From assembly GCA_021811185.1 (NCBI GenBank), contig JAJZPL010000016.1, forward strand, positions 1 through 64,000: a stretch of 64,000 nt of DNA. The letters are read 5' to 3'. The stretch comes from a bacterium (GTDB lineage Bacteria > Elusimicrobiota > Elusimicrobia > Elusimicrobiales > UBA9959). The translations under genes and the position numbers were made by a program. Shown here in pieces: positions 4,288-59,604 of the stretch (positions are counted from its first letter, which is position 1; every line of letters starts with the position of its first letter). The notes beneath the pieces were generated by a model. The model saw only the letters and a list, made by a program, of their open reading frames with translations. It had not been told where the DNA came from and did no database searches.

Positions 4288-5841
4288 ATGAAAAAAATAT
4301 TCCTGACACTGGCTCTTCTTGCCGTTTTTTCGGGGCTTCACGCGCGGGCCCTGACCGTCGCCGTCTACCATACCTCGGACGCGCACGGCTGGTACTCCGC
4401 GCGGCCGGCGCGGTGGGATAACGAAAATCCCGCGCGCAGCATCGGCGGTTTCGCGGCGCTCTCGGCGCTGCTTAAAAAGGAGACCACCCCGTATGTCCTG
4501 CTGGATTCCGGCGACATGTCCCAGGGCACTCCGGAGGGCATTCTCACCAAGGGCATGGCCAGCATAGCGCTGATGAACCAGCTCGGCTATTCCGCCGCGG
4601 TCCCGGGCAACCACGATTTCGATTACGGCGAAGCCAATCTTAAGGTGCTGGTCTCCAGCGCGGCTTTCCCTTTCCTGGGCGCCAACGTGTATTCCAAGGC
4701 CGCCGGCGGCCGCGTCGCTTACCTTAAGCCTTACGCGATCCTCGAAAAAGGCGGCCGGAAGATAGCCGTGCTGGGCCTGCTCGGCCGGCATACGGCCACC
4801 TCCACCCTGCCGTCCAACGTGAAGCACCTGGATTTCCGCGAGGAGGCCGCCGAGACCGCCAAATGGCTCCCGGAGATAAAGCGGCAGAACCCCGACGCGG
4901 TCATCGTGCTCACGCACCTCGGCCTCAGCGAGGACCTGAGCCTTAAGCGGGTGGATATCTCCACCTGGACCTTCGACCCGCCGCCCTTCGGCACGCTGAT
5001 GATAGCGCGGGCGGCGCCCGGCGTAGACCTGGTGCTGGGCGGGCATAACCACGCCGCGCTGCTGCGGGGCTACCACGACCCGGTCTCCGGCGCCTGGCTG
5101 GGCGAAAGCGGCTACGGGCTCTCTTACGTTACCAGGGCGGAGCTGAATTTTAACGACGCTACCGGCAAGCTCGAGGACATTAAGGTGAACGTTCTCCCGC
5201 TCTGGACGGACCAGACCGGCCAGGACCCGCTGGTGCTTAAGACCATAGCCGGTTTTAACGCCCAGGTGGACCGCGAGATGGGCCGGGTGATAGGCCGCGC
5301 GGCCTCCGGCCTGGGCGCCGCTCCCGACGGCCTCGATTCGCCCATAGGCGGCTGGCTGTGCGACATAAGCCGCAAGGCGACGGGCGCGGATATGGCTTTT
5401 CATAATACCAAGGCTTTAAGGGCTGAGATAAAGAAAGGCCCGGTGCGGCTGCGGGATATCTTCCAGGCGATGCCGTTCGACAATACCCTCATCACCATGA
5501 GGCTGAACGGCGCGCAGCTCAAGCGCCTGATGGCCGACAACCTGCGCGGCGGCTGGAGCGCCGTCCAGGTCTCCGGCCTGCGGGTGAAGTTCAGGCCCGG
5601 GCCAGGCGGCAAACCCTCCGAAATACGTCTCGAGCGCAACGGGCGCGAGATCAAGCCCGGGGAAGAATTCCTGGTGGCCACCAACAACTACCTGGCTTTC
5701 GGCGGCAACGGCGGCGGTGTTTTCTCCGAAGGCAGGGATATTAAAGACACCATGCTCCCCGTGCGGGACGTGATGATAAAGGCTTTCTCCAAAGGCCCGG
5801 TAAAGGCGCCGGAACACGGCAGGATAAGAAGGCTCAAATAA
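4288..5841 (+). CDS. Secreted 5'-nucleotidase / calcineurin-like metallophosphoesterase (UshA-like)
   Basis: Signal peptide; DAHG...GDxxQG...GNHDFDYG metallophosphatase motifs; C-terminal 5'-nucleotidase substrate domain. Confidence 0.8.
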   Translation: MKKIFLTLALLAVFSGLHARALTVAVYHTSDAHGWYSARPARWDNENPARSIGGFAALSALLKKETTPYVLLDSGDMSQGTPEGILTKGMASIALMNQLGYSAAVPGNHDFDYGEANLKVLVSSAAFPFLGANVYSKAAGGRVAYLKPYAILEKGGRKIAVLGLLGRHTATSTLPSNVKHLDFREEAAETAKWLPEIKRQNPDAVIVLTHLGLSEDLSLKRVDISTWTFDPPPFGTLMIARAAPGVDLVLGGHNHAALLRGYHDPVSGAWLGESGYGLSYVTRAELNFNDATGKLEDIKVNVLPLWTDQTGQDPLVLKTIAGFNAQVDREMGRVIGRAASGLGAAPDGLDSPIGGWLCDISRKATGADMAFHNTKALRAEIKKGPVRLRDIFQAMPFDNTLITMRLNGAQLKRLMADNLRGGWSAVQVSGLRVKFRPGPGGKPSEIRLERNGREIKPGEEFLVATNNYLAFGGNGGGVFSEGRDIKDTMLPVRDVMIKAFSKGPVKAPEHGRIRRLK

Positions 5842-5887: not shown

Positions 5888-7978
5888 ATGTCATTCGACG
5901 CTGTGCTTAACTTGTTCCTTTCGGGCGGCATGGGTTCGCTGCTGGGCGCGCTCATCCTGGCGGGGTTCGTCGTGGTGCTGATGAACACCTTCGTGGTGGT
6001 GGGCGGCGCGCAGATGGCCGTGCTGGAACGCCGCTGGTTCGGGCGCGACATGCCGCTCGGCCGCGTGGTGGCCATGCCCAACGAAGTGGGCATCCAGGCG
6101 CGGATACTTCCGCCCGGCCTGCATATGCTGATCCCGTTCCTTTACCGCGTGGAGAAATACCCGATGGTGACCATCGGCGAGAACGAGGTGGGCCAGGTGG
6201 AATCCGTGGACGGCCTCCCGGTGGCGCCCGGCAAGATCTTCGGCCCCGTCACCGAAGGCCACGACCTGTTCCAGGAAGGCGAGCTCTTCCTGCGCAACAA
6301 CGGCAGCAAAGGGCCGCAGGTGCAGATCCTGCCGCCCGGCATCTACCGCATCAACCCCTACCTGTTCAAGGTGGACAAGGTCTCCATCATCAAGGTTCCC
6401 AACAACCAGATAGGCGTGGTGGTGGCCAACGACGGCCAGCCTATGGCCCCGGGGCGTCTGCTCGGTAAGAAGATCGAGGGCCACAACAACTTCCTGAACG
6501 GCCAGGCGTTCCTCGAAAAAGGCGGCCAGAAAGGCCCGCAGATCGACATCCTGCTGCCCGGTTCCTACCGCATCAACTCCAAGCTGTTCAGCGTAGTGAT
6601 CAAGGACGCCACGGTGGTGCCCACCAAGAAAGTGGGCCTGGTGACCGCCCGGGACGGCGCGCCGCTCCCGCTGGGCGAATACGTGGCCAAGAGCATCGAG
6701 AGCACCGGCGAGTTCCAGGACGGCGCCATGTTCCTCGCCAATGGCGGCCAGCGCGGCCCCCAGTTCGACTTCCTCAAGCCCGGCACCTACTACATCAACC
6801 CCATGATGTTCGACGTCACCCTCGACGAGGTGCTGTTCGTGCAGCGCGGCGAGGTGGCGGTCATCGTCTCCAACATCGGCAAGGACCCCGTGTCCGTGAT
6901 GCCGAAAGTGAGCGAGGACGGCACTACCGCCACCGAAATGGTTAAGATGGGCGTGGAGCGCTACGTGGTGGAGCCCGGCTACCGCGGCATCCAGCGCGAA
7001 GTGCTCGGGCCCGGCACCTATTACCTTAACAAGCTGGCGTTCACTCCGCATATCATCCCCACCACCAATATAACCATAGACTGGGCGGAGCAGAAGTCGG
7101 AAGGCAATATGCCGCTGGTCTTCAACCCGCTGGCCATCGTCTCCAAGGACGGCTTCGAGATGACCGTAGAGGTGAAGGTCATCCTCAGGGTGCAGCCGCA
7201 GCAGGCGCCCCACATGGTGGCCCGCATCGGCACCATCCAGAACCTGATCGAGGCCGTGATCCACCCGCTGGTGGACAGCTCGTTCAGGAACCAGGCCTCC
7301 TCGTCGGAAGCCATGATGTTCATGCAGGACCGCCACGAGCAGCAGCGCAAGGCCGAACAGCACGTGGTGGAAGAGCTGGAGAAATACCACGTGGAATGCG
7401 TCAGCGTGCTGATCTGCCAGATCAAGCTGCCCGAGCGCCTGATGCAGACGCTCACCAACAAGGTGGTGGCCACGCAGCAGAAATCCATGTACGACGCGCA
7501 GCAGGAGGCCGAAGGCCGCCGGCGCGAGATGGAAAAGACCAAGGCGCAGGCCGACCTGCAGCCCAACCTGGTGAAGGCCGAGATCGACGTGCAGATCGCC
7601 ACCCAGCAGAAGCAGCAGTCCATCACCCTCGCCGAGGGTAAGGGCCAGAGCACCCGGCTGGAGCAGGAAGGCATCGCCGGCGGTATCGAGGCCGTAGGCC
7701 GCGCCGAGGGCGAGAAGATCCGCGCCATCGGCCAGGCTACCGCCGAGGCTTATACCAAGCAGGCGCTGGCCCTGGGCCAGGCGCCCCTCTCGATGATCGA
7801 GATCATGAAGCGCGTTTCCGAGGGCAGGATCAAGATCACCCCGGACGTGGTGGTGAACGGCGGCGGCGCGGACGGCGGCAACAACATGCTTTCCGCCTTC
7901 ATCGCCAGCCTGATGGCCAACGGCATGAAGCTGGTGAAAGACGACGCCGCGGCCGGTAAACCCGGAAAGCAGGCCTGA
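5888..7978 (+). CDS. SPFH/band-7 (flotillin-like) protein with N-terminal TM segment, three tandem ~60-aa repeats and a C-terminal coiled coil
   Basis: TM helix; three repeats of the G-VVA-DG-P-APG...EGH-F-G-FL--GG-KGPQ--IL-PG-YRIN-LF-V pattern; band-7-like core (ITIDWAEQ...VEVKVILRV); Ala/Glu/Gln-rich coiled-coil tail typical of flotillins. Confidence 0.6.
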   Translation: MSFDAVLNLFLSGGMGSLLGALILAGFVVVLMNTFVVVGGAQMAVLERRWFGRDMPLGRVVAMPNEVGIQARILPPGLHMLIPFLYRVEKYPMVTIGENEVGQVESVDGLPVAPGKIFGPVTEGHDLFQEGELFLRNNGSKGPQVQILPPGIYRINPYLFKVDKVSIIKVPNNQIGVVVANDGQPMAPGRLLGKKIEGHNNFLNGQAFLEKGGQKGPQIDILLPGSYRINSKLFSVVIKDATVVPTKKVGLVTARDGAPLPLGEYVAKSIESTGEFQDGAMFLANGGQRGPQFDFLKPGTYYINPMMFDVTLDEVLFVQRGEVAVIVSNIGKDPVSVMPKVSEDGTTATEMVKMGVERYVVEPGYRGIQREVLGPGTYYLNKLAFTPHIIPTTNITIDWAEQKSEGNMPLVFNPLAIVSKDGFEMTVEVKVILRVQPQQAPHMVARIGTIQNLIEAVIHPLVDSSFRNQASSSEAMMFMQDRHEQQRKAEQHVVEELEKYHVECVSVLICQIKLPERLMQTLTNKVVATQQKSMYDAQQEAEGRRREMEKTKAQADLQPNLVKAEIDVQIATQQKQQSITLAEGKGQSTRLEQEGIAGGIEAVGRAEGEKIRAIGQATAEAYTKQALALGQAPLSMIEIMKRVSEGRIKITPDVVVNGGGADGGNNMLSAFIASLMANGMKLVKDDAAAGKPGKQA

Positions 7979-23817: not shown

Positions 23818-23846
23818 GAGCACGGTTTGCTTCGGAGGGGTGGCGA

Positions 23847-23992: not shown

Positions 23993-24019
23993 TTGCAAAC
24001 CGTTTCTAAAAGGACCCAA

Positions 24020-56724: not shown

Positions 56725-58182
56725 ATGAAGATACTTGTTGCCGCCAGCGAAGCTTTCCCTTTCTGCAAGACCGGCGGGCTAGCCGACGTTACCGGCGCCC
56801 TGGCGCAGGTCTTCTCCAGGGCGGACGACACCGAGGTGGTGCTGTTCCTGCCGCGCTACAGGAACGTAGGCGGCGGCGCTTTCTCGCCCAAGGCCGCGGG
56901 CGGCAGTTTCCTTATCCCTGTCGGCAACCGCGTGGAGACCGCCACGATGAGCCGCGTGCAGTGGGGCAAGGTGGCCGTGTACTTCATCGAGAACCCCAAG
57001 TATTTCGACCGCCCCGGCATGTACCGCTCCGCCTCGGGCGATTACGAGGACAACGACGAGAGGTTCATGTTCTTCTCGCGCGCGGTGCTGGAGGGGGCCA
57101 AGTTCATAGGCTTCAAGCCAGACGTGATCCATTGCCACGACTGGCAGACGGGCCTGGTGCCGGCCTACCTGCGCACGCTTTACCGCATAGATTCCTTCTA
57201 CGCCAAGACCGCCACGGTCTTCACCATCCACAATATCGCCTACCAGGGCATGTTCCCCAAGGAAACGCTGCTGAAGGCCGGGTTCTCCTGGCTGGACTTC
57301 ACCCCGGAGAGGTTGGAGTTCTACGGCGGGATAAACTACATGAAGTCGGCGCTGGTTTTCGCTGACCTTATCACCACGGTGAGCCCCACCTACGCGAGCG
57401 AGATCCAGTACCGCCCGGAGTTCGGCCATGGGCTTGAGGGCGTGCTGAAGCACCGCACGTCGGACCTGTTCGGCATCCTCAACGGCATCGACGAGGAGAT
57501 CTGGGACCCGGCTACGGACACTTTCCTGGAGCGCGGCTACGAGCTGAAGAGCTTCCAGCGCGGCAAGGCGGCGGCCAAGAAGGCGCTGCAGAAGGAGCTC
57601 GGCCTCGAGGAGAACAAGGACCTGATCCTGGCGGGCGTTGTTAGCCGGCTGGATTATCAGAAGGGGCTTGATACGCTGCTGAAGGTGGCGCCGGAATTCG
57701 TGGACAAAATGCAATTTGTCGTGTTGGGAGCCGGGGACCCTGGCCTGGCGGACGCTTTCGGGGCTTTGGCCGGCGCTAACCCGAAGCGGGTGGCGTTCCG
57801 GTCGGGTTTCGACGAGGAACTGGCGCACCGCATCTACGGCGGCGCGGATATTTTCGTGATGCCTTCGCGGTTCGAGCCGTGCGGGCTTAGCCAGATGATC
57901 TCGATGCGCTACGGCGCGCTGCCGGTGGTGACGCGCACGGGCGGCCTGAAGGACACGGTGTTCTACAACGGCGAGCCCAAGGATTCCAACGGCTTCGCGA
58001 TAGACAACGCGGACGAGGGCCAGCTGCGCTCCATCCTCGGGCATATCGTGTCGCTATTCGGCTGGCGCGAGAACTGGAACCTGATGGTGAAGAACGCCAT
58101 GCGCGGCGACTACGCCTGGGGCAAGTCCGCCGAAGCCTACATCAAGCTCTTCGCCATCGCCGCCCAGCGCCGGCAGTTGTAG
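56725..58182 (+). CDS. glgA: Glycogen synthase (ADP-glucose type)
   Basis: N-terminal KTGGLADV motif; GT5 architecture; 485 aa. Confidence 0.9.
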   Translation: MKILVAASEAFPFCKTGGLADVTGALAQVFSRADDTEVVLFLPRYRNVGGGAFSPKAAGGSFLIPVGNRVETATMSRVQWGKVAVYFIENPKYFDRPGMYRSASGDYEDNDERFMFFSRAVLEGAKFIGFKPDVIHCHDWQTGLVPAYLRTLYRIDSFYAKTATVFTIHNIAYQGMFPKETLLKAGFSWLDFTPERLEFYGGINYMKSALVFADLITTVSPTYASEIQYRPEFGHGLEGVLKHRTSDLFGILNGIDEEIWDPATDTFLERGYELKSFQRGKAAAKKALQKELGLEENKDLILAGVVSRLDYQKGLDTLLKVAPEFVDKMQFVVLGAGDPGLADAFGALAGANPKRVAFRSGFDEELAHRIYGGADIFVMPSRFEPCGLSQMISMRYGALPVVTRTGGLKDTVFYNGEPKDSNGFAIDNADEGQLRSILGHIVSLFGWRENWNLMVKNAMRGDYAWGKSAEAYIKLFAIAAQRRQL

Positions 58183-58194
58183 ACCGATCTTACA

Positions 58195-58338
58195 TTCGGA
58201 CCGCGAGAAGCGAAGTCTGGTGCGTCCAGGGGGACCGGAACGCAAAACGCGCTCGGCCACACCGTGGCCTCGCTCGACATTCGGCCCTCGCGCTATGCAA
58301 GCTCGGGCCTCACGACGGTTTTGCTAACCCGGTCCCCC
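58195..58338 (-). repeat. Structured repeat copy D (inverted relative to copy A; hairpin 58229-58338)
   Basis: Reverse complement nearly identical to copy A including the gggggaccgg/ccggtccccc closing stem; tail ccagacttcgcttctcgcg. Confidence 0.75.
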
Positions 58339-58389
58339 TGTCCACACCCTCCGCTTGTTAGGTTCCAAGTAAGAAAGTAATTTTTGAAA

Positions 58390-58689
58390 ATGAAAAAATT
58401 TAAATTAGCATTAAGCTTGTTGGTGGCTTTAAGCTTTATGCACTATGTTTTTCAATTTTTTGCGTGGAGCTATGCGCCAGGTAATGCTGCTCCGATGGCC
58501 GGGAATCCTGGATATTGGCAGCATATTGCTTGGCCGGTGTTGTCCTTTCCTGCGTTTTGGCTGTTTTCCAACTGGGCGACAGAATACTTTGGAACTGTAT
58601 CTGTTTTGAATAGTTTGATCTGGGGGGTTCTGCTTACTAAAGTGTTTTTATGGCAATGGGGGAAGCATGTTCGGCAAACTGTAAAATAA
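58390..58689 (+). CDS. Small AT-rich-encoded membrane protein (99 aa, 2-3 TM, Trp/Phe-rich)
   Basis: Marked compositional contrast (AT-rich codons) to the flanking DNA; hydrophobic segments; bracketed by inverted repeat copies D and C. Confidence 0.45.
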   Translation: MKKFKLALSLLVALSFMHYVFQFFAWSYAPGNAAPMAGNPGYWQHIAWPVLSFPAFWLFSNWATEYFGTVSVLNSLIWGVLLTKVFLWQWGKHVRQTVK

Positions 58690-58795
58690 GGACAGCGGCC
58701 TGTTTCTGCCAGTTGTTTAACCGCCGGGGGACTGGCGGTTTTGTTTTGTAAGGGGACTAGGGATGGGCACTTGGGAATTAAGCGGAGGCGGCGGA

Positions 58796-58940
58796 CTGGG
58801 GTGCCGGGTTAGCAAAACCCTCACGGAGGCCGAGGCTTGCGTAAGCGACGAGGCCGAGTGAGGAGGGGCGGCTACGGTGTGGCCGACCCCGTGTTTTGCG
58901 TTCCGGCACCCCAGGCCGCCACCGACTTCGCTATCCTGCG
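58796..58940 (+). repeat. Structured repeat copy C (hairpin 58796-58914 plus CCGACTTC tail)
   Basis: Closing stem ctggggtgccgg/ccggcaccccag (compensatory relative to copies A and D); gttagcaaaaccc and gttttgcgttcc shared. Confidence 0.75.
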
Positions 58941-58956
58941 GAATAAAAAAATATTG

Positions 58957-59604
58957 TTACAGCGAGCGGCCGGAGGCGCGGGCGATGTCCTTGTACAGGC
59001 GGTAGCTGGCGGCCAGGGCGGCGTCCACGCAGGAAAGGGAGAACGGGGTCAGCGTGGCCGTCTCCTCGAGGGGGATCCGGTAAAGGCAGCAGTAGTCGGC
59101 TACTTCCATGCGGGCGCTGGCCAGGGCGGCGTCGGCCGAGCGCTCCAGGGGCTCGGCCTCTACGCGCTTTACGAGCGCGTCGAAATGCAGCCGCGAGTAA
59201 GCCCCCTTTATGTGCCGCTCCGCCTCGGGGTCCCTGCCGGCGGTTTTCTTTTCCTCTTTTATTATCGAGAACGGTTCCAGCGCGGAGAGGCGCTGCTCTA
59301 TGAACGCCGGGCTGCCGGCCATGGCGGCGCCTACCCTTTTGAAGTCCGTCTCTGAAATAAGCCGGTCCAGCCCGGACCTGAAGTCCTCCGCGGCTCCCGG
59401 CGTAGCTTTTCCGGACTTGAGTTTCTGGACGAAGGCGGCGCACAGCTCCGCCAGGGTTTCCCTCTGGAGGTCGGCCAGGTATTCCGCCATGTTGTGGAAG
59501 GAGGTCAGGAAAAAATCTTTCTCGCTGGTGTAGCCCCTCGGGGGCGCGCCGGTGAACGTCCTTAAGGCCGCGACTAGCATCAGCTGGTTCCGCATTTTCG
59601 CCAT
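58957..59604 (-). CDS. Hypothetical protein downstream of the RND efflux operon
   Basis: 215-aa ORF with GC-rich codon usage; no recognised domain. Confidence 0.45.
   Translation of the reverse strand: MAKMRNQLMLVAALRTFTGAPPRGYTSEKDFFLTSFHNMAEYLADLQRETLAELCAAFVQKLKSGKATPGAAEDFRSGLDRLISETDFKRVGAAMAGSPAFIEQRLSALEPFSIIKEEKKTAGRDPEAERHIKGAYSRLHFDALVKRVEAEPLERSADAALASARMEVADYCCLYRIPLEETATLTPFSLSCVDAALAASYRLYKDIARASGRSL

Follow-up and report, generated by a model that had tools for sequence, protein, structure and literature searches.

Related systems and the locus under study

Bacterial miniature inverted-repeat transposable elements (MITEs), such as Correia/NEMIS, ERIC, RUP and Nezha, keep terminal inverted repeats that are specific for a transposase and make target duplications. 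Integron cassettes carry attC sites with R and L boxes (RYYYAAC...GTTRRRY) and are found in direct arrays with the integrase gene intI, the attI site and the promoter Pc; clusters of attC sites without an integrase are referred to as CALINs. We know of no gene cargo held between the halves of REPINs, which are inverted doublets of repetitive extragenic palindromes (REPs). REPs are about 25-35 nt long and have a conserved GTAG-type 5' motif, and the REPINs formed by them are non-autonomous (PMC3116915, PMC3337134). Among polymorphic toxins, an RHS C-terminal toxin domain followed by an immunity gene is the canonical layout, which includes orphan modules (PMC3150448, PMC10539506), and orphan toxin-immunity modules of Rhs and contact-dependent inhibition (CDI) systems as well as acquired interbacterial defence clusters have been described (PMC3150448, PMC10539506, PMC12247911). 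Here we report on a 64-kb stretch of DNA, referred to as the window, from a high-GC Elusimicrobiales bacterium (contig JAJZPL010000016.1; mean GC ~63%), in which an AT-rich segment with a gene for a 99-aa membrane protein is located between glgA and a resistance-nodulation-division (RND) pump gene. With moderate confidence, we propose that this segment is a horizontally acquired one-gene islet centred in a head-to-head pair of mobile, hairpin-forming repeats, and that its gene is an orphan RHS immunity gene.

An AT-rich one-gene segment between inverted structured repeats

The lowest GC content of the whole 64 kb was found in the 400-nt interval from 58351 (0.432; mean 0.627, sd 0.041, z = -4.7), and 200-nt intervals over 58300-58699 had a GC content of 0.44-0.46 compared to ~0.63 in the surroundings. 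The AT-rich segment coincides exactly with the gap between two covariance-model matches (58349-58787; 439 bp, GC 0.44), copies D and C of a structured repeat termed T1, whose arms were also detected as plain inverted repeats. The anomalous composition and the exact bracketing by inverted repeats, both put forward in a preliminary description made from the sequence, were thus borne out. The locus contains the following features:

56725-58182, + strand: glgA (glycogen synthase), left host flank; Pfam Glyco_transf_5, E 8e-80; 95% identity to the Elusimicrobiales metagenome-assembled genome (MAG) locus L002
58202-58348, - strand: structured repeat T1, copy D; covariance-model match 58209-58348, 122 bits, E 4e-20; fold -87.5 kcal/mol, z -7.0
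58349-58787, no strand: AT-rich cargo, 439 bp, GC 0.44, occupying the space between both repeat heads; contains the interval of lowest GC, z -4.7
58355-58383, + strand: weak promoter-like TTGTTA-17 nt-TAATTT, read by eye, in a stretch conserved in locus L001
58390-58689, + strand: gene for the 99-aa membrane protein; open reading frame (ORF) from ATG, in-frame TTG at 58384
58719-58750, + strand: intrinsic terminator from a terminator scan, AACCGCCGG-loop-CTGGCGGTT followed by TTGTTTTGTA (T-run), upstream of repeat C
58788-58941, + strand: structured repeat T1, copy C; covariance-model match 58788-58932, 144 bits, E 3e-24; fold -95.5 kcal/mol, z -6.6
58957-59604, - strand: 215-aa ORF, right flanking gene, between repeat C and the RND pump gene; host-like GC content at third codon positions (GC3) of 0.84

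Copy D abuts glgA with its 3' tail (CCGCGAGAAGCGAAGTC on the + strand), ~20 nt from the glgA stop codon, and points its 5' head toward the cargo; copy C also has its head toward the cargo and its tail (GACTTCGCTATCCTGCGG) outward. The conserved 3' tail ..GACTTCGC.TCTCGCGG faces outward in both copies and reaches to ~58202 on the left and ~58941 on the right; a single conserved motif of 17-20 nt is found at the two outer ends, in inverted orientation. The hairpins had been described as pointing outward, which holds for the conserved tails but not for the heads (GGAGGGG), which face inward to the cargo.

The GC3 of the 99-aa gene was 0.43 as compared to 0.81-0.92 in nine host genes. The gene also occurs on a 600-bp contig (L001), which was the sole match in a word-indexed search and the sole other genome with the gene in such a slot, at an amino-acid identity of 76%. 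Between the two, the ratio of nonsynonymous to synonymous substitution rates (dN/dS) was 0.26-0.31, and 20 of the 37 differences within codons 1-87 were located at third positions. Together with the foreign GC3, these values indicate that the ORF is a real, constrained and foreign gene and, as judged from its sequence, one that was horizontally acquired. BLAST searches of plasmids and phages with the gene and with the whole feature gave no match.

The promoter-like stretch lies within the 41 nt from the head of D to the ATG and ends 6 nt before the latter; it scored below the threshold of a consensus scan. Transcription by read-through from glgA is just as conceivable, since the scan of 58100-59050 called no terminator on the + strand from the glgA stop to the start of the ORF. 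The cargo transcript should end at the predicted terminator at 58719-58750, upstream of repeat C, which would place the repeats outside the 3' end of the cargo mRNA. A role of the cargo terminator (CCGCCGG..CCGGCGGTTTT) as framework of a cassette was considered and rejected, as it belongs to a generic GC-rich terminator type in these genomes.

The glgA-RND junction in related genomes

For the comparison, 80 species-level glgA loci of relatives with 6-kb flanks were used, in most of which the RND pump gene is convergent with glgA. The 99-aa gene was not found at the glgA-RND junction of any of the 80 relatives. The most informative junctions are arranged as follows:

L002 (closest glgA): no repeat; junction of 80 bp with a single bidirectional terminator
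L020: T1 on the - strand plus the truncated 3' arm/tail of a + strand partner; terminator as in L002
L004: T1 on the - strand, 77-bp AT-rich spacer, T1 on the + strand; no ORF
L021: T1 on the - strand, 35 bp, T2 (a sister type of T1, see below) on the + strand; cargo-free

The empty site of the closest relative, L002, and the empty pairs of L004, L021 and L020, together with the foreign GC3 and the absence of the gene from the glgA loci, agree with the acquired insertion that had been suggested and with the comparison of empty sites proposed along with it. In L020 the pair, one half of which is truncated, is placed between the glgA stop codon and the terminator that is kept intact in L002. The - strand T1 starts 3-20 nt past the glgA stop in nine related loci lacking the gene, including species with just 76% glgA identity. 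The left junction of L001 is the same as in the window, its T1 copy being 96% identical to copy D and carrying a compensated change in one hairpin. On the right side of L001, homology ends within the last dozen codons, and a T2 follows and replaces the 3' end of the ORF, instead of terminator and T1. The shared left repeat, the differing right partner and the cargo-free sites indicate that the repeats belong to the site and not to the gene, and that both sides turn over independently.

The possibility that the L004 pair represents the window pair in flipped orientation was rejected, as copy D resembles many other copies as closely as it does the two L004 halves (~90% identity). In L004 and L021, the + strand gene next to the pair is preceded by a conserved GC-rich leader (GGGCCTAG..GGGCCCT(A/C)GCGGG..GGTTTT..GATAAT(T/A)ATAG(A/T)GATG; L004:7845-7938, L021:7850-7926), which could be a cis-regulatory RNA. 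The 215-aa ORF right of copy C had no match in Pfam, NCBIfam, PHROG or PADLOC; it is missing from the glgA-RND junction in all 80 relatives, and tblastn gave no match in any locus.

T1 and T2 are two families of structured repeats

A covariance model of T1 was built from 14 copies. With it, 18 copies were identified in the window, L001 and the 80 glgA loci taken together, and a further 155 copies in metagenome loci that were retrieved by the conserved core. The window holds four T1 copies, C on the + strand and D on the - strand at the cargo, and two solo copies:

41-179, + strand: T1 copy A, solo; covariance-model match, 121 bits
23835-23980, + strand: T1 copy B, solo; covariance-model match, 141 bits; wholly different stem sequence, same fold

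Each of the four copies is predicted to fold into a long stem and a junction of two hairpins (-87 to -96 kcal/mol, z -6.6 to -8.5 against shuffled sequences). Copy A lies within an additional inverted repeat of 18 nt (20-37 and 194-211; AAGCAGGCTTGTTCCTGC / GCAGGAACATTCCTGCTT) and copy B within a short one at 23824-23831 and 23994-24001 (CGGTTTGC / GCAAACCG); these locus-specific outer repeats reflect either insertion into a prior palindrome or a stem that is longer than the conserved ends.

T2 is a sister type that shares head and tail with T1 and has another two-hairpin core (..GGGGGGCCCCGCC-loop-GGCGGGGGGAAACCGACGCAAGGGTTTCC..). Both types measure 145-165 nt and have common ends, 5' GGAGGGG and 3' CCCCGACT..GC.TCTCGCGG; the tail motif is absent from many T1 sub-lineages. 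The usual position of T2 is that of the head-to-head partner of a T1, and the following copies (strand not assigned) were recognised adjoining T1 copies:

L021:7694-7842, T2
L001:461-600, T2
L099:2585-2733, T2
L084:1847-1988 and 4414-4558, T2

T1 stem sequences vary freely among copies, with compensation. In an alignment of 105 T1 copies, 95% of the cells pair and compensatory changes occur in 26 of 30 pairs, with a covariation score of 0.47 compared to 0.14 in shuffled alignments and at most 0.10 with slid partners. Since this alignment was fitted to the model and leans toward the structure, an independent MAFFT alignment is the more conservative measure, in which 21 of the 30 pairs were compensated. 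Compared to its complement, the strand read from head to tail gave the more stable fold, by ~10 kcal/mol, in 148 of 150 T1 copies, and on this strand the first hairpin has a GNRA-type loop (GUAA or GCAA). Strand bias and loop indicate that the constrained entity is a single strand, RNA or DNA; the bias does not demonstrate recombination. Scanning of the window, the feature region and a T1+T2 pair against Rfam 15 at gathering and permissive thresholds gave chance-level matches only (E >= 0.01, far below gathering scores), a literature search on Elusimicrobia repeats returned nothing relevant, and the T1 core was not found in a scan of a viral contig collection. T1 and T2 are two previously undescribed structured repeat families that are specific to this high-GC Elusimicrobiales lineage.

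The strand-biased structure and the GNRA-type loop would also fit small-RNA genes or cis-regulatory RNAs that are transcribed outward from an AT-rich central promoter, with the ORF being secondary, and the AT-rich DNA upstream of heads looks in some cases like a -10 box. We regard this as very unlikely. The sequence upstream of the heads differs even between near-identical copies, indicating that no promoter travels with the element, and some pairs have spacers of 0-3 bp; terminators of their own are predicted to end the cargo transcripts ahead of the element, the repeats match no Rfam family, the ORF is under purifying selection, and strand bias is expected equally for a single-stranded DNA intermediate.

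T1 copies that are 90-99% identical over their full length, including the stems, were found in wholly unrelated 400-bp flanks, suggesting that single elements are mobile, now or recently. The gene families recurring near elements were generic paralogs such as response regulators and ABC ATPases. A third recurrent module (CCTCCGCCCTTGCGGCCCGGACGCGAGGCATAATTATGCCTCGC..) adjoins element heads at L114:10007-10090, L139:9455-9540 and L188:1199-1290, which suggests a mosaic of several repeat types in these genomes resembling bacterial interspersed mosaic elements (BIMEs).

With REPs, REPINs and BIMEs, T1 and T2 share that they are extragenic, present in high copy number, hairpin-forming, arranged mainly in inverted doublets and mosaics, non-autonomous and probably acting as single strands, and that near-identical copies are found in flanks without relation to one another. 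They differ in their unit length, the branched core, the freely co-varying stems and the ends GGAGGGG and CCCCGAC, and lack a GTAG-like motif; no candidate for a REP-associated tyrosine transposase (RAYT) recurred in clustering of the ORFs near elements, for which no RAYT profile scan was run. With MITEs they share a small size, the lack of coding capacity, a structured sequence and a dispersed, intergenic location, and MITEs can alter neighbouring transcription. In contrast to MITEs, the arms of T1 vary with compensation and no duplication was seen, and an AT-rich gene cargo between pairs is not a MITE trait.

Head-to-head pairs and their variable cargo

In total, 196 elements were identified in 1.74 Mb of loci that had been selected for glgA or the T1 core pattern. 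Forty-seven pairs of neighbours were located within 2.5 kb, 39 of them head-to-head, two tail-to-tail and six in tandem (binomial p 1e-16 against an expectation of 25%). While 26 head-to-head pairs were empty, with spacers of -1 to 77 bp, the spacers of 11 others measured 350-1820 bp, and ten of these 11 were AT-rich (GC 0.42-0.51), as had been anticipated for further repeat pairs in these genomes. The GC content of tandem and tail-to-tail spacers was 0.54-0.63 (p 0.0016 compared to the long head-to-head spacers); that of short contigs is itself depressed by the cargo. Two further bracketed islands, in L174 and L194, had initially been scored as lying beside solo elements, and the bracketing partner was detected via the tail motif only.

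The cargos are mutually unrelated and occur in either orientation. Their products are membrane-rich or signal-peptide proteins without family match, one OmpL47-like surface protein and one Phd/YefM antitoxin. The gene of the latter (L159:2396-2689; Pfam E 4e-16) lies in an AT-rich cargo between T1 heads, and a cognate toxin may be encoded in the ~300 nt that separate it from the terminator downstream.

Four loci whose flanks X and Y are 75-87% identical represent different states of the same syntenic site:

L099: flanks X/Y; T1 (-), 39 bp, T2 (+); empty
L195: T1 (-), 1687-bp AT-rich cargo, T1 (+), Y; loaded
L125: X, T1, 1007-bp different cargo, T1; loaded
L194: X, T1, 2.2-kb third segment, element tail, Y; loaded

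The four states of this orthologous pair, one empty and three with different cargos, cannot each be ancestral, and this series together with that at the glgA-RND junction favours a slot over coincidence. At another orthologous site, the heads of a pair abut with a zero-length spacer in one genome (L099:6263-6550), and only one element is present in the other (L184:3447-3586). A new element may thus insert precisely at the head of a resident one, or one half of a pair may be lost to leave a solo copy.

Like integron cassettes, these arrangements combine small, often unannotated or foreign genes with structured, strand-biased palindromes, in which structure is conserved more than sequence, and a variable cargo with a fixed platform. 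They differ from integrons by the inverted orientation of the sites, by one to three genes per slot, by a cargo with its own terminator and perhaps promoter, and by the absence of an integrase, attI or Pc at these slots. Also, no conserved AAC/GTT was found at the stem base in the T1 and T2 alignments as would correspond to attC boxes.

The preliminary description had offered a miniature non-autonomous transposable cassette as one option. In such a self-contained unit, repeat, gene and repeat would form one transposon, the outward tails being recognised by a transposase encoded elsewhere. The inverted tail motifs at the outer ends, the recurrence of the architecture with different cargos in either orientation, and the insertion of the L020 pair between the glgA stop and the terminator intact in L002 are consistent with such a unit. 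However, no loaded unit was found at two loci, the left repeat is present at the site in nine species without the gene, the same cargo has a partner of the other type in L001, and single copies are mobile. In addition, no target duplication was seen at the window, L004 and L020 junctions or between L002 and L020, although divergence of the flanks precludes a comparison to the exact base. Clustering of nearby ORFs showed no enriched transposase family, the freely varying stems are unlike transposase-bound inverted repeats, and the tail motif is absent in many T1 sub-lineages. We therefore consider the transposon quite unlikely, and it is the least supported of the entry models.

Foreign low-GC DNA could also have been misjoined at the repeats during MAG assembly, as repeats are classic mis-join sites and the composition of the cargo is like that of other taxa. 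Such an artefact is extremely improbable, since L001, an independent contig from another sample, has the same junction of repeat and gene, and at least eleven further loci from many samples display the same architecture.

The 99-aa protein family is linked to RHS toxins

Exhaustive HMMER searches identified 64 cluster representatives of the 99-aa family, all but two longer ones 78-125 aa in length, showing that the protein is not a true ORFan. The family has the motifs H..QF.AWS..PGN / W..LSFP.F / NS.IW with invariant polar residues. The protein itself had no match in Pfam, PHROGs, PADLOC or NCBIfam, a Pfam search with 30 family members yielded chance matches only, and the members that were looked up had no functional name. 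AlphaFold2 with the alignment of the HMMER family gave a confident model (pLDDT 94.5, pTM 0.82), in which a short helical hairpin in the centre is placed between long helices at residues 2-27 and 67-98, in keeping with the small membrane protein that had been described. Neither a sequence-profile search of the PDB nor a Foldseek search with the model found a structural relative. The homologous genes have a GC content of 35-51% and their loci one of 43-58%, and these loci lack T1 and T2, which fits an import of the window gene from outside the lineage.

In all six contexts for which DNA was available (L202/203, L204, L205, L206/207, L208/209), the homologue is located directly downstream of one RHS C-terminal domain. 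With this domain as query, tblastn gave a match immediately upstream of the homologue in each context (E 1e-18 to 1e-29), the gap between RHS fragment and homologue ranging from an overlap of stop and start to ~130 nt. The domain is followed by a homologue of the 99-aa protein at each of these positions (strand not assigned):

L202:4590-4997, RHS C-terminal domain
L205:374-853, RHS C-terminal domain
L206:3537-3932, RHS C-terminal domain
L208:393-746, RHS C-terminal domain
L204:1672-2034, RHS C-terminal domain, uncalled, between a DDE transposase gene and the homologue

In L202/203 and L205 the homologue begins at or overlaps the stop codon of an RHS-core protein. These upstream proteins scored 75 and 68 bits for the RHS-associated core TIGR03696 (cut-off 32.5) and have in common a C-terminal domain of ~135 aa (42% identity, E 3e-46). 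The genes around homologues form arrays of YD-shell fragments and small ORFs, and the homologue P0002 is also located within an RHS array. The conserved HLSI.VG ... TCR.F in the putative toxin domain suggests, at the level of sequence motifs, a Cys/His enzyme.

From this neighbourhood, the 99-aa protein is most likely an immunity protein against the RHS toxin domain, which is in line with the immunity-like cargo considered at the outset. As tblastn identified no such toxin domain in the window or L001, the gene would be an orphan immunity gene there. With orphan immunity genes in general it shares the small size, the detachment from the toxin, the horizontal acquisition and the foreign composition, and its homologues reside in RHS toxin/immunity arrays. 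It differs in that a single gene is located in a housekeeping intergenic region and bracketed by structured repeats rather than in an rhs array or recombinase-linked island, and in that both the 99-aa family and its toxin domain are unannotated.

A toxin or holin had been named as another option, i.e., a type I or holin-like toxin, and the protein is indeed small, hydrophobic, rich in Trp and Phe and encoded alone without a partner gene. This is highly improbable given that neither Pfam, PHROG, PADLOC nor NCBIfam lent support by a holin, phage or defence-system profile match, that there is no endolysin neighbour, that polar motifs are conserved in a confident compact predicted fold, and that the family is placed after the RHS C-terminal domain, where immunity genes lie. 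An immunity function of all cargos found no support, as the cargo family of L106 has no toxin link in two contexts.

Elsewhere in the window, three to four tandem 222-nt units (64-76% identity) were found at 6253-7030 inside an ORF at 5888-7978, pointing to a repeated protein domain.

Discussion

According to our proposal, the 99-aa protein would reside in the inner membrane and neutralise a specific RHS-delivered toxin domain, thereby shielding the cell from competitors. The gene would be transcribed from the weak promoter by the left repeat or by read-through from glgA, and its transcript would be terminated ahead of the right repeat, by the terminator within the cargo. T1 and T2 would move one unit at a time and come to lie in head-to-head pairs, and the few tens of bases between the heads would constitute a hypervariable site at which foreign AT-rich DNA is gained, swapped and lost while repeats and host genes stay. 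For cargo entry, we prefer two routes: the flanking ~145-nt repeats, ~90% identical between loci and genomes, could serve as portable homology for replacement by double crossover, or a structure-specific enzyme could act on the extruded hairpins. Both the immunity function and the route of entry are what we infer from the arrangement.

Several observations weigh against this proposal. The immunity assignment draws on gene neighbourhood only, the RHS C-terminal domain has no Pfam match, and the cargo family of L106 is widespread. The same cargo was not found in two different slots, so that an exchange between slots is hypothetical; within 1.8 Mb, every cargo other than the gene of the window and L001 occurred once. 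Neither an insertion junction nor a duplication could be recognised, and clustering of the ORFs near elements in ~0.8 Mb of metagenome loci revealed no enriched transposase or recombinase family. Some loci are duplicates or orthologues (e.g., L017 = L136), so the counts are not fully independent, and all data are MAGs or metagenome contigs. Finally, the DNA on the head side of solo elements was AT-richer by 4-6 points than on the tail side (p ~0.002), which fits homing to AT-rich borders.

Homing would mean that the AT-rich gene came first and that T1 and T2 inserted independently at each border, head-first toward easily melted DNA. The mobility of single elements, the contact of head sides with AT-rich islands in 12 of 84 cases compared to 6 of 97 tail sides, the many empty pairs with AT-rich spacers (GC 0.19-0.46), and the different right partner, T1 in the window and in L001 a T2 replacing the 3' end of the ORF, all speak for such a scenario. 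Nevertheless, we consider it possible but unlikely. Elements are present at the glgA junction in about ten cargo-free species, and the same flanking T1 at the L099-series locus faces an empty spacer or three different cargos. Such a distribution is more readily accounted for by a pair that predates the cargo. Moreover, AT-richness is lacking in the spacers of several empty pairs (GC 0.55-0.70), and in two pairs the spacer measures at most 3 bp. A recombination hot spot at the pair centre and orientation-biased homing may both operate.

T1 and T2 act like elements of the REP/REPIN/BIME type, yet without their defining sequence features, and by analogy the platform appears integron-like in outcome only. 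More speculatively, the head-to-head T1/T2 pair could be a dedicated structure-specific platform for gene capture and a functional analogue of the integron, two extruded hairpins setting the recombination site between the heads. Foreign AT-rich genes for defence or the envelope would then be inserted and swapped there by an enzyme acting in trans or through homologous exchange guided by the repeats, and these Elusimicrobia would possess many dispersed single-cassette slots. We regard this extension as doubtful at present.

The unusually clean covariation gives T1 and T2 a value that is independent of the interpretation as slots. If that interpretation is true, a poorly studied phylum would use repeats to harbour and exchange foreign genes, in a manner unlike integrons, tRNA-gene islands and transposons bounded by insertion sequences. 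The strict pairing of an unannotated membrane-protein family with an unannotated RHS toxin domain would represent a new toxin-immunity pair, and the finding of a probable orphan immunity gene in an uncultured lineage from groundwater points to contact-dependent antagonism as a force that shapes these communities.

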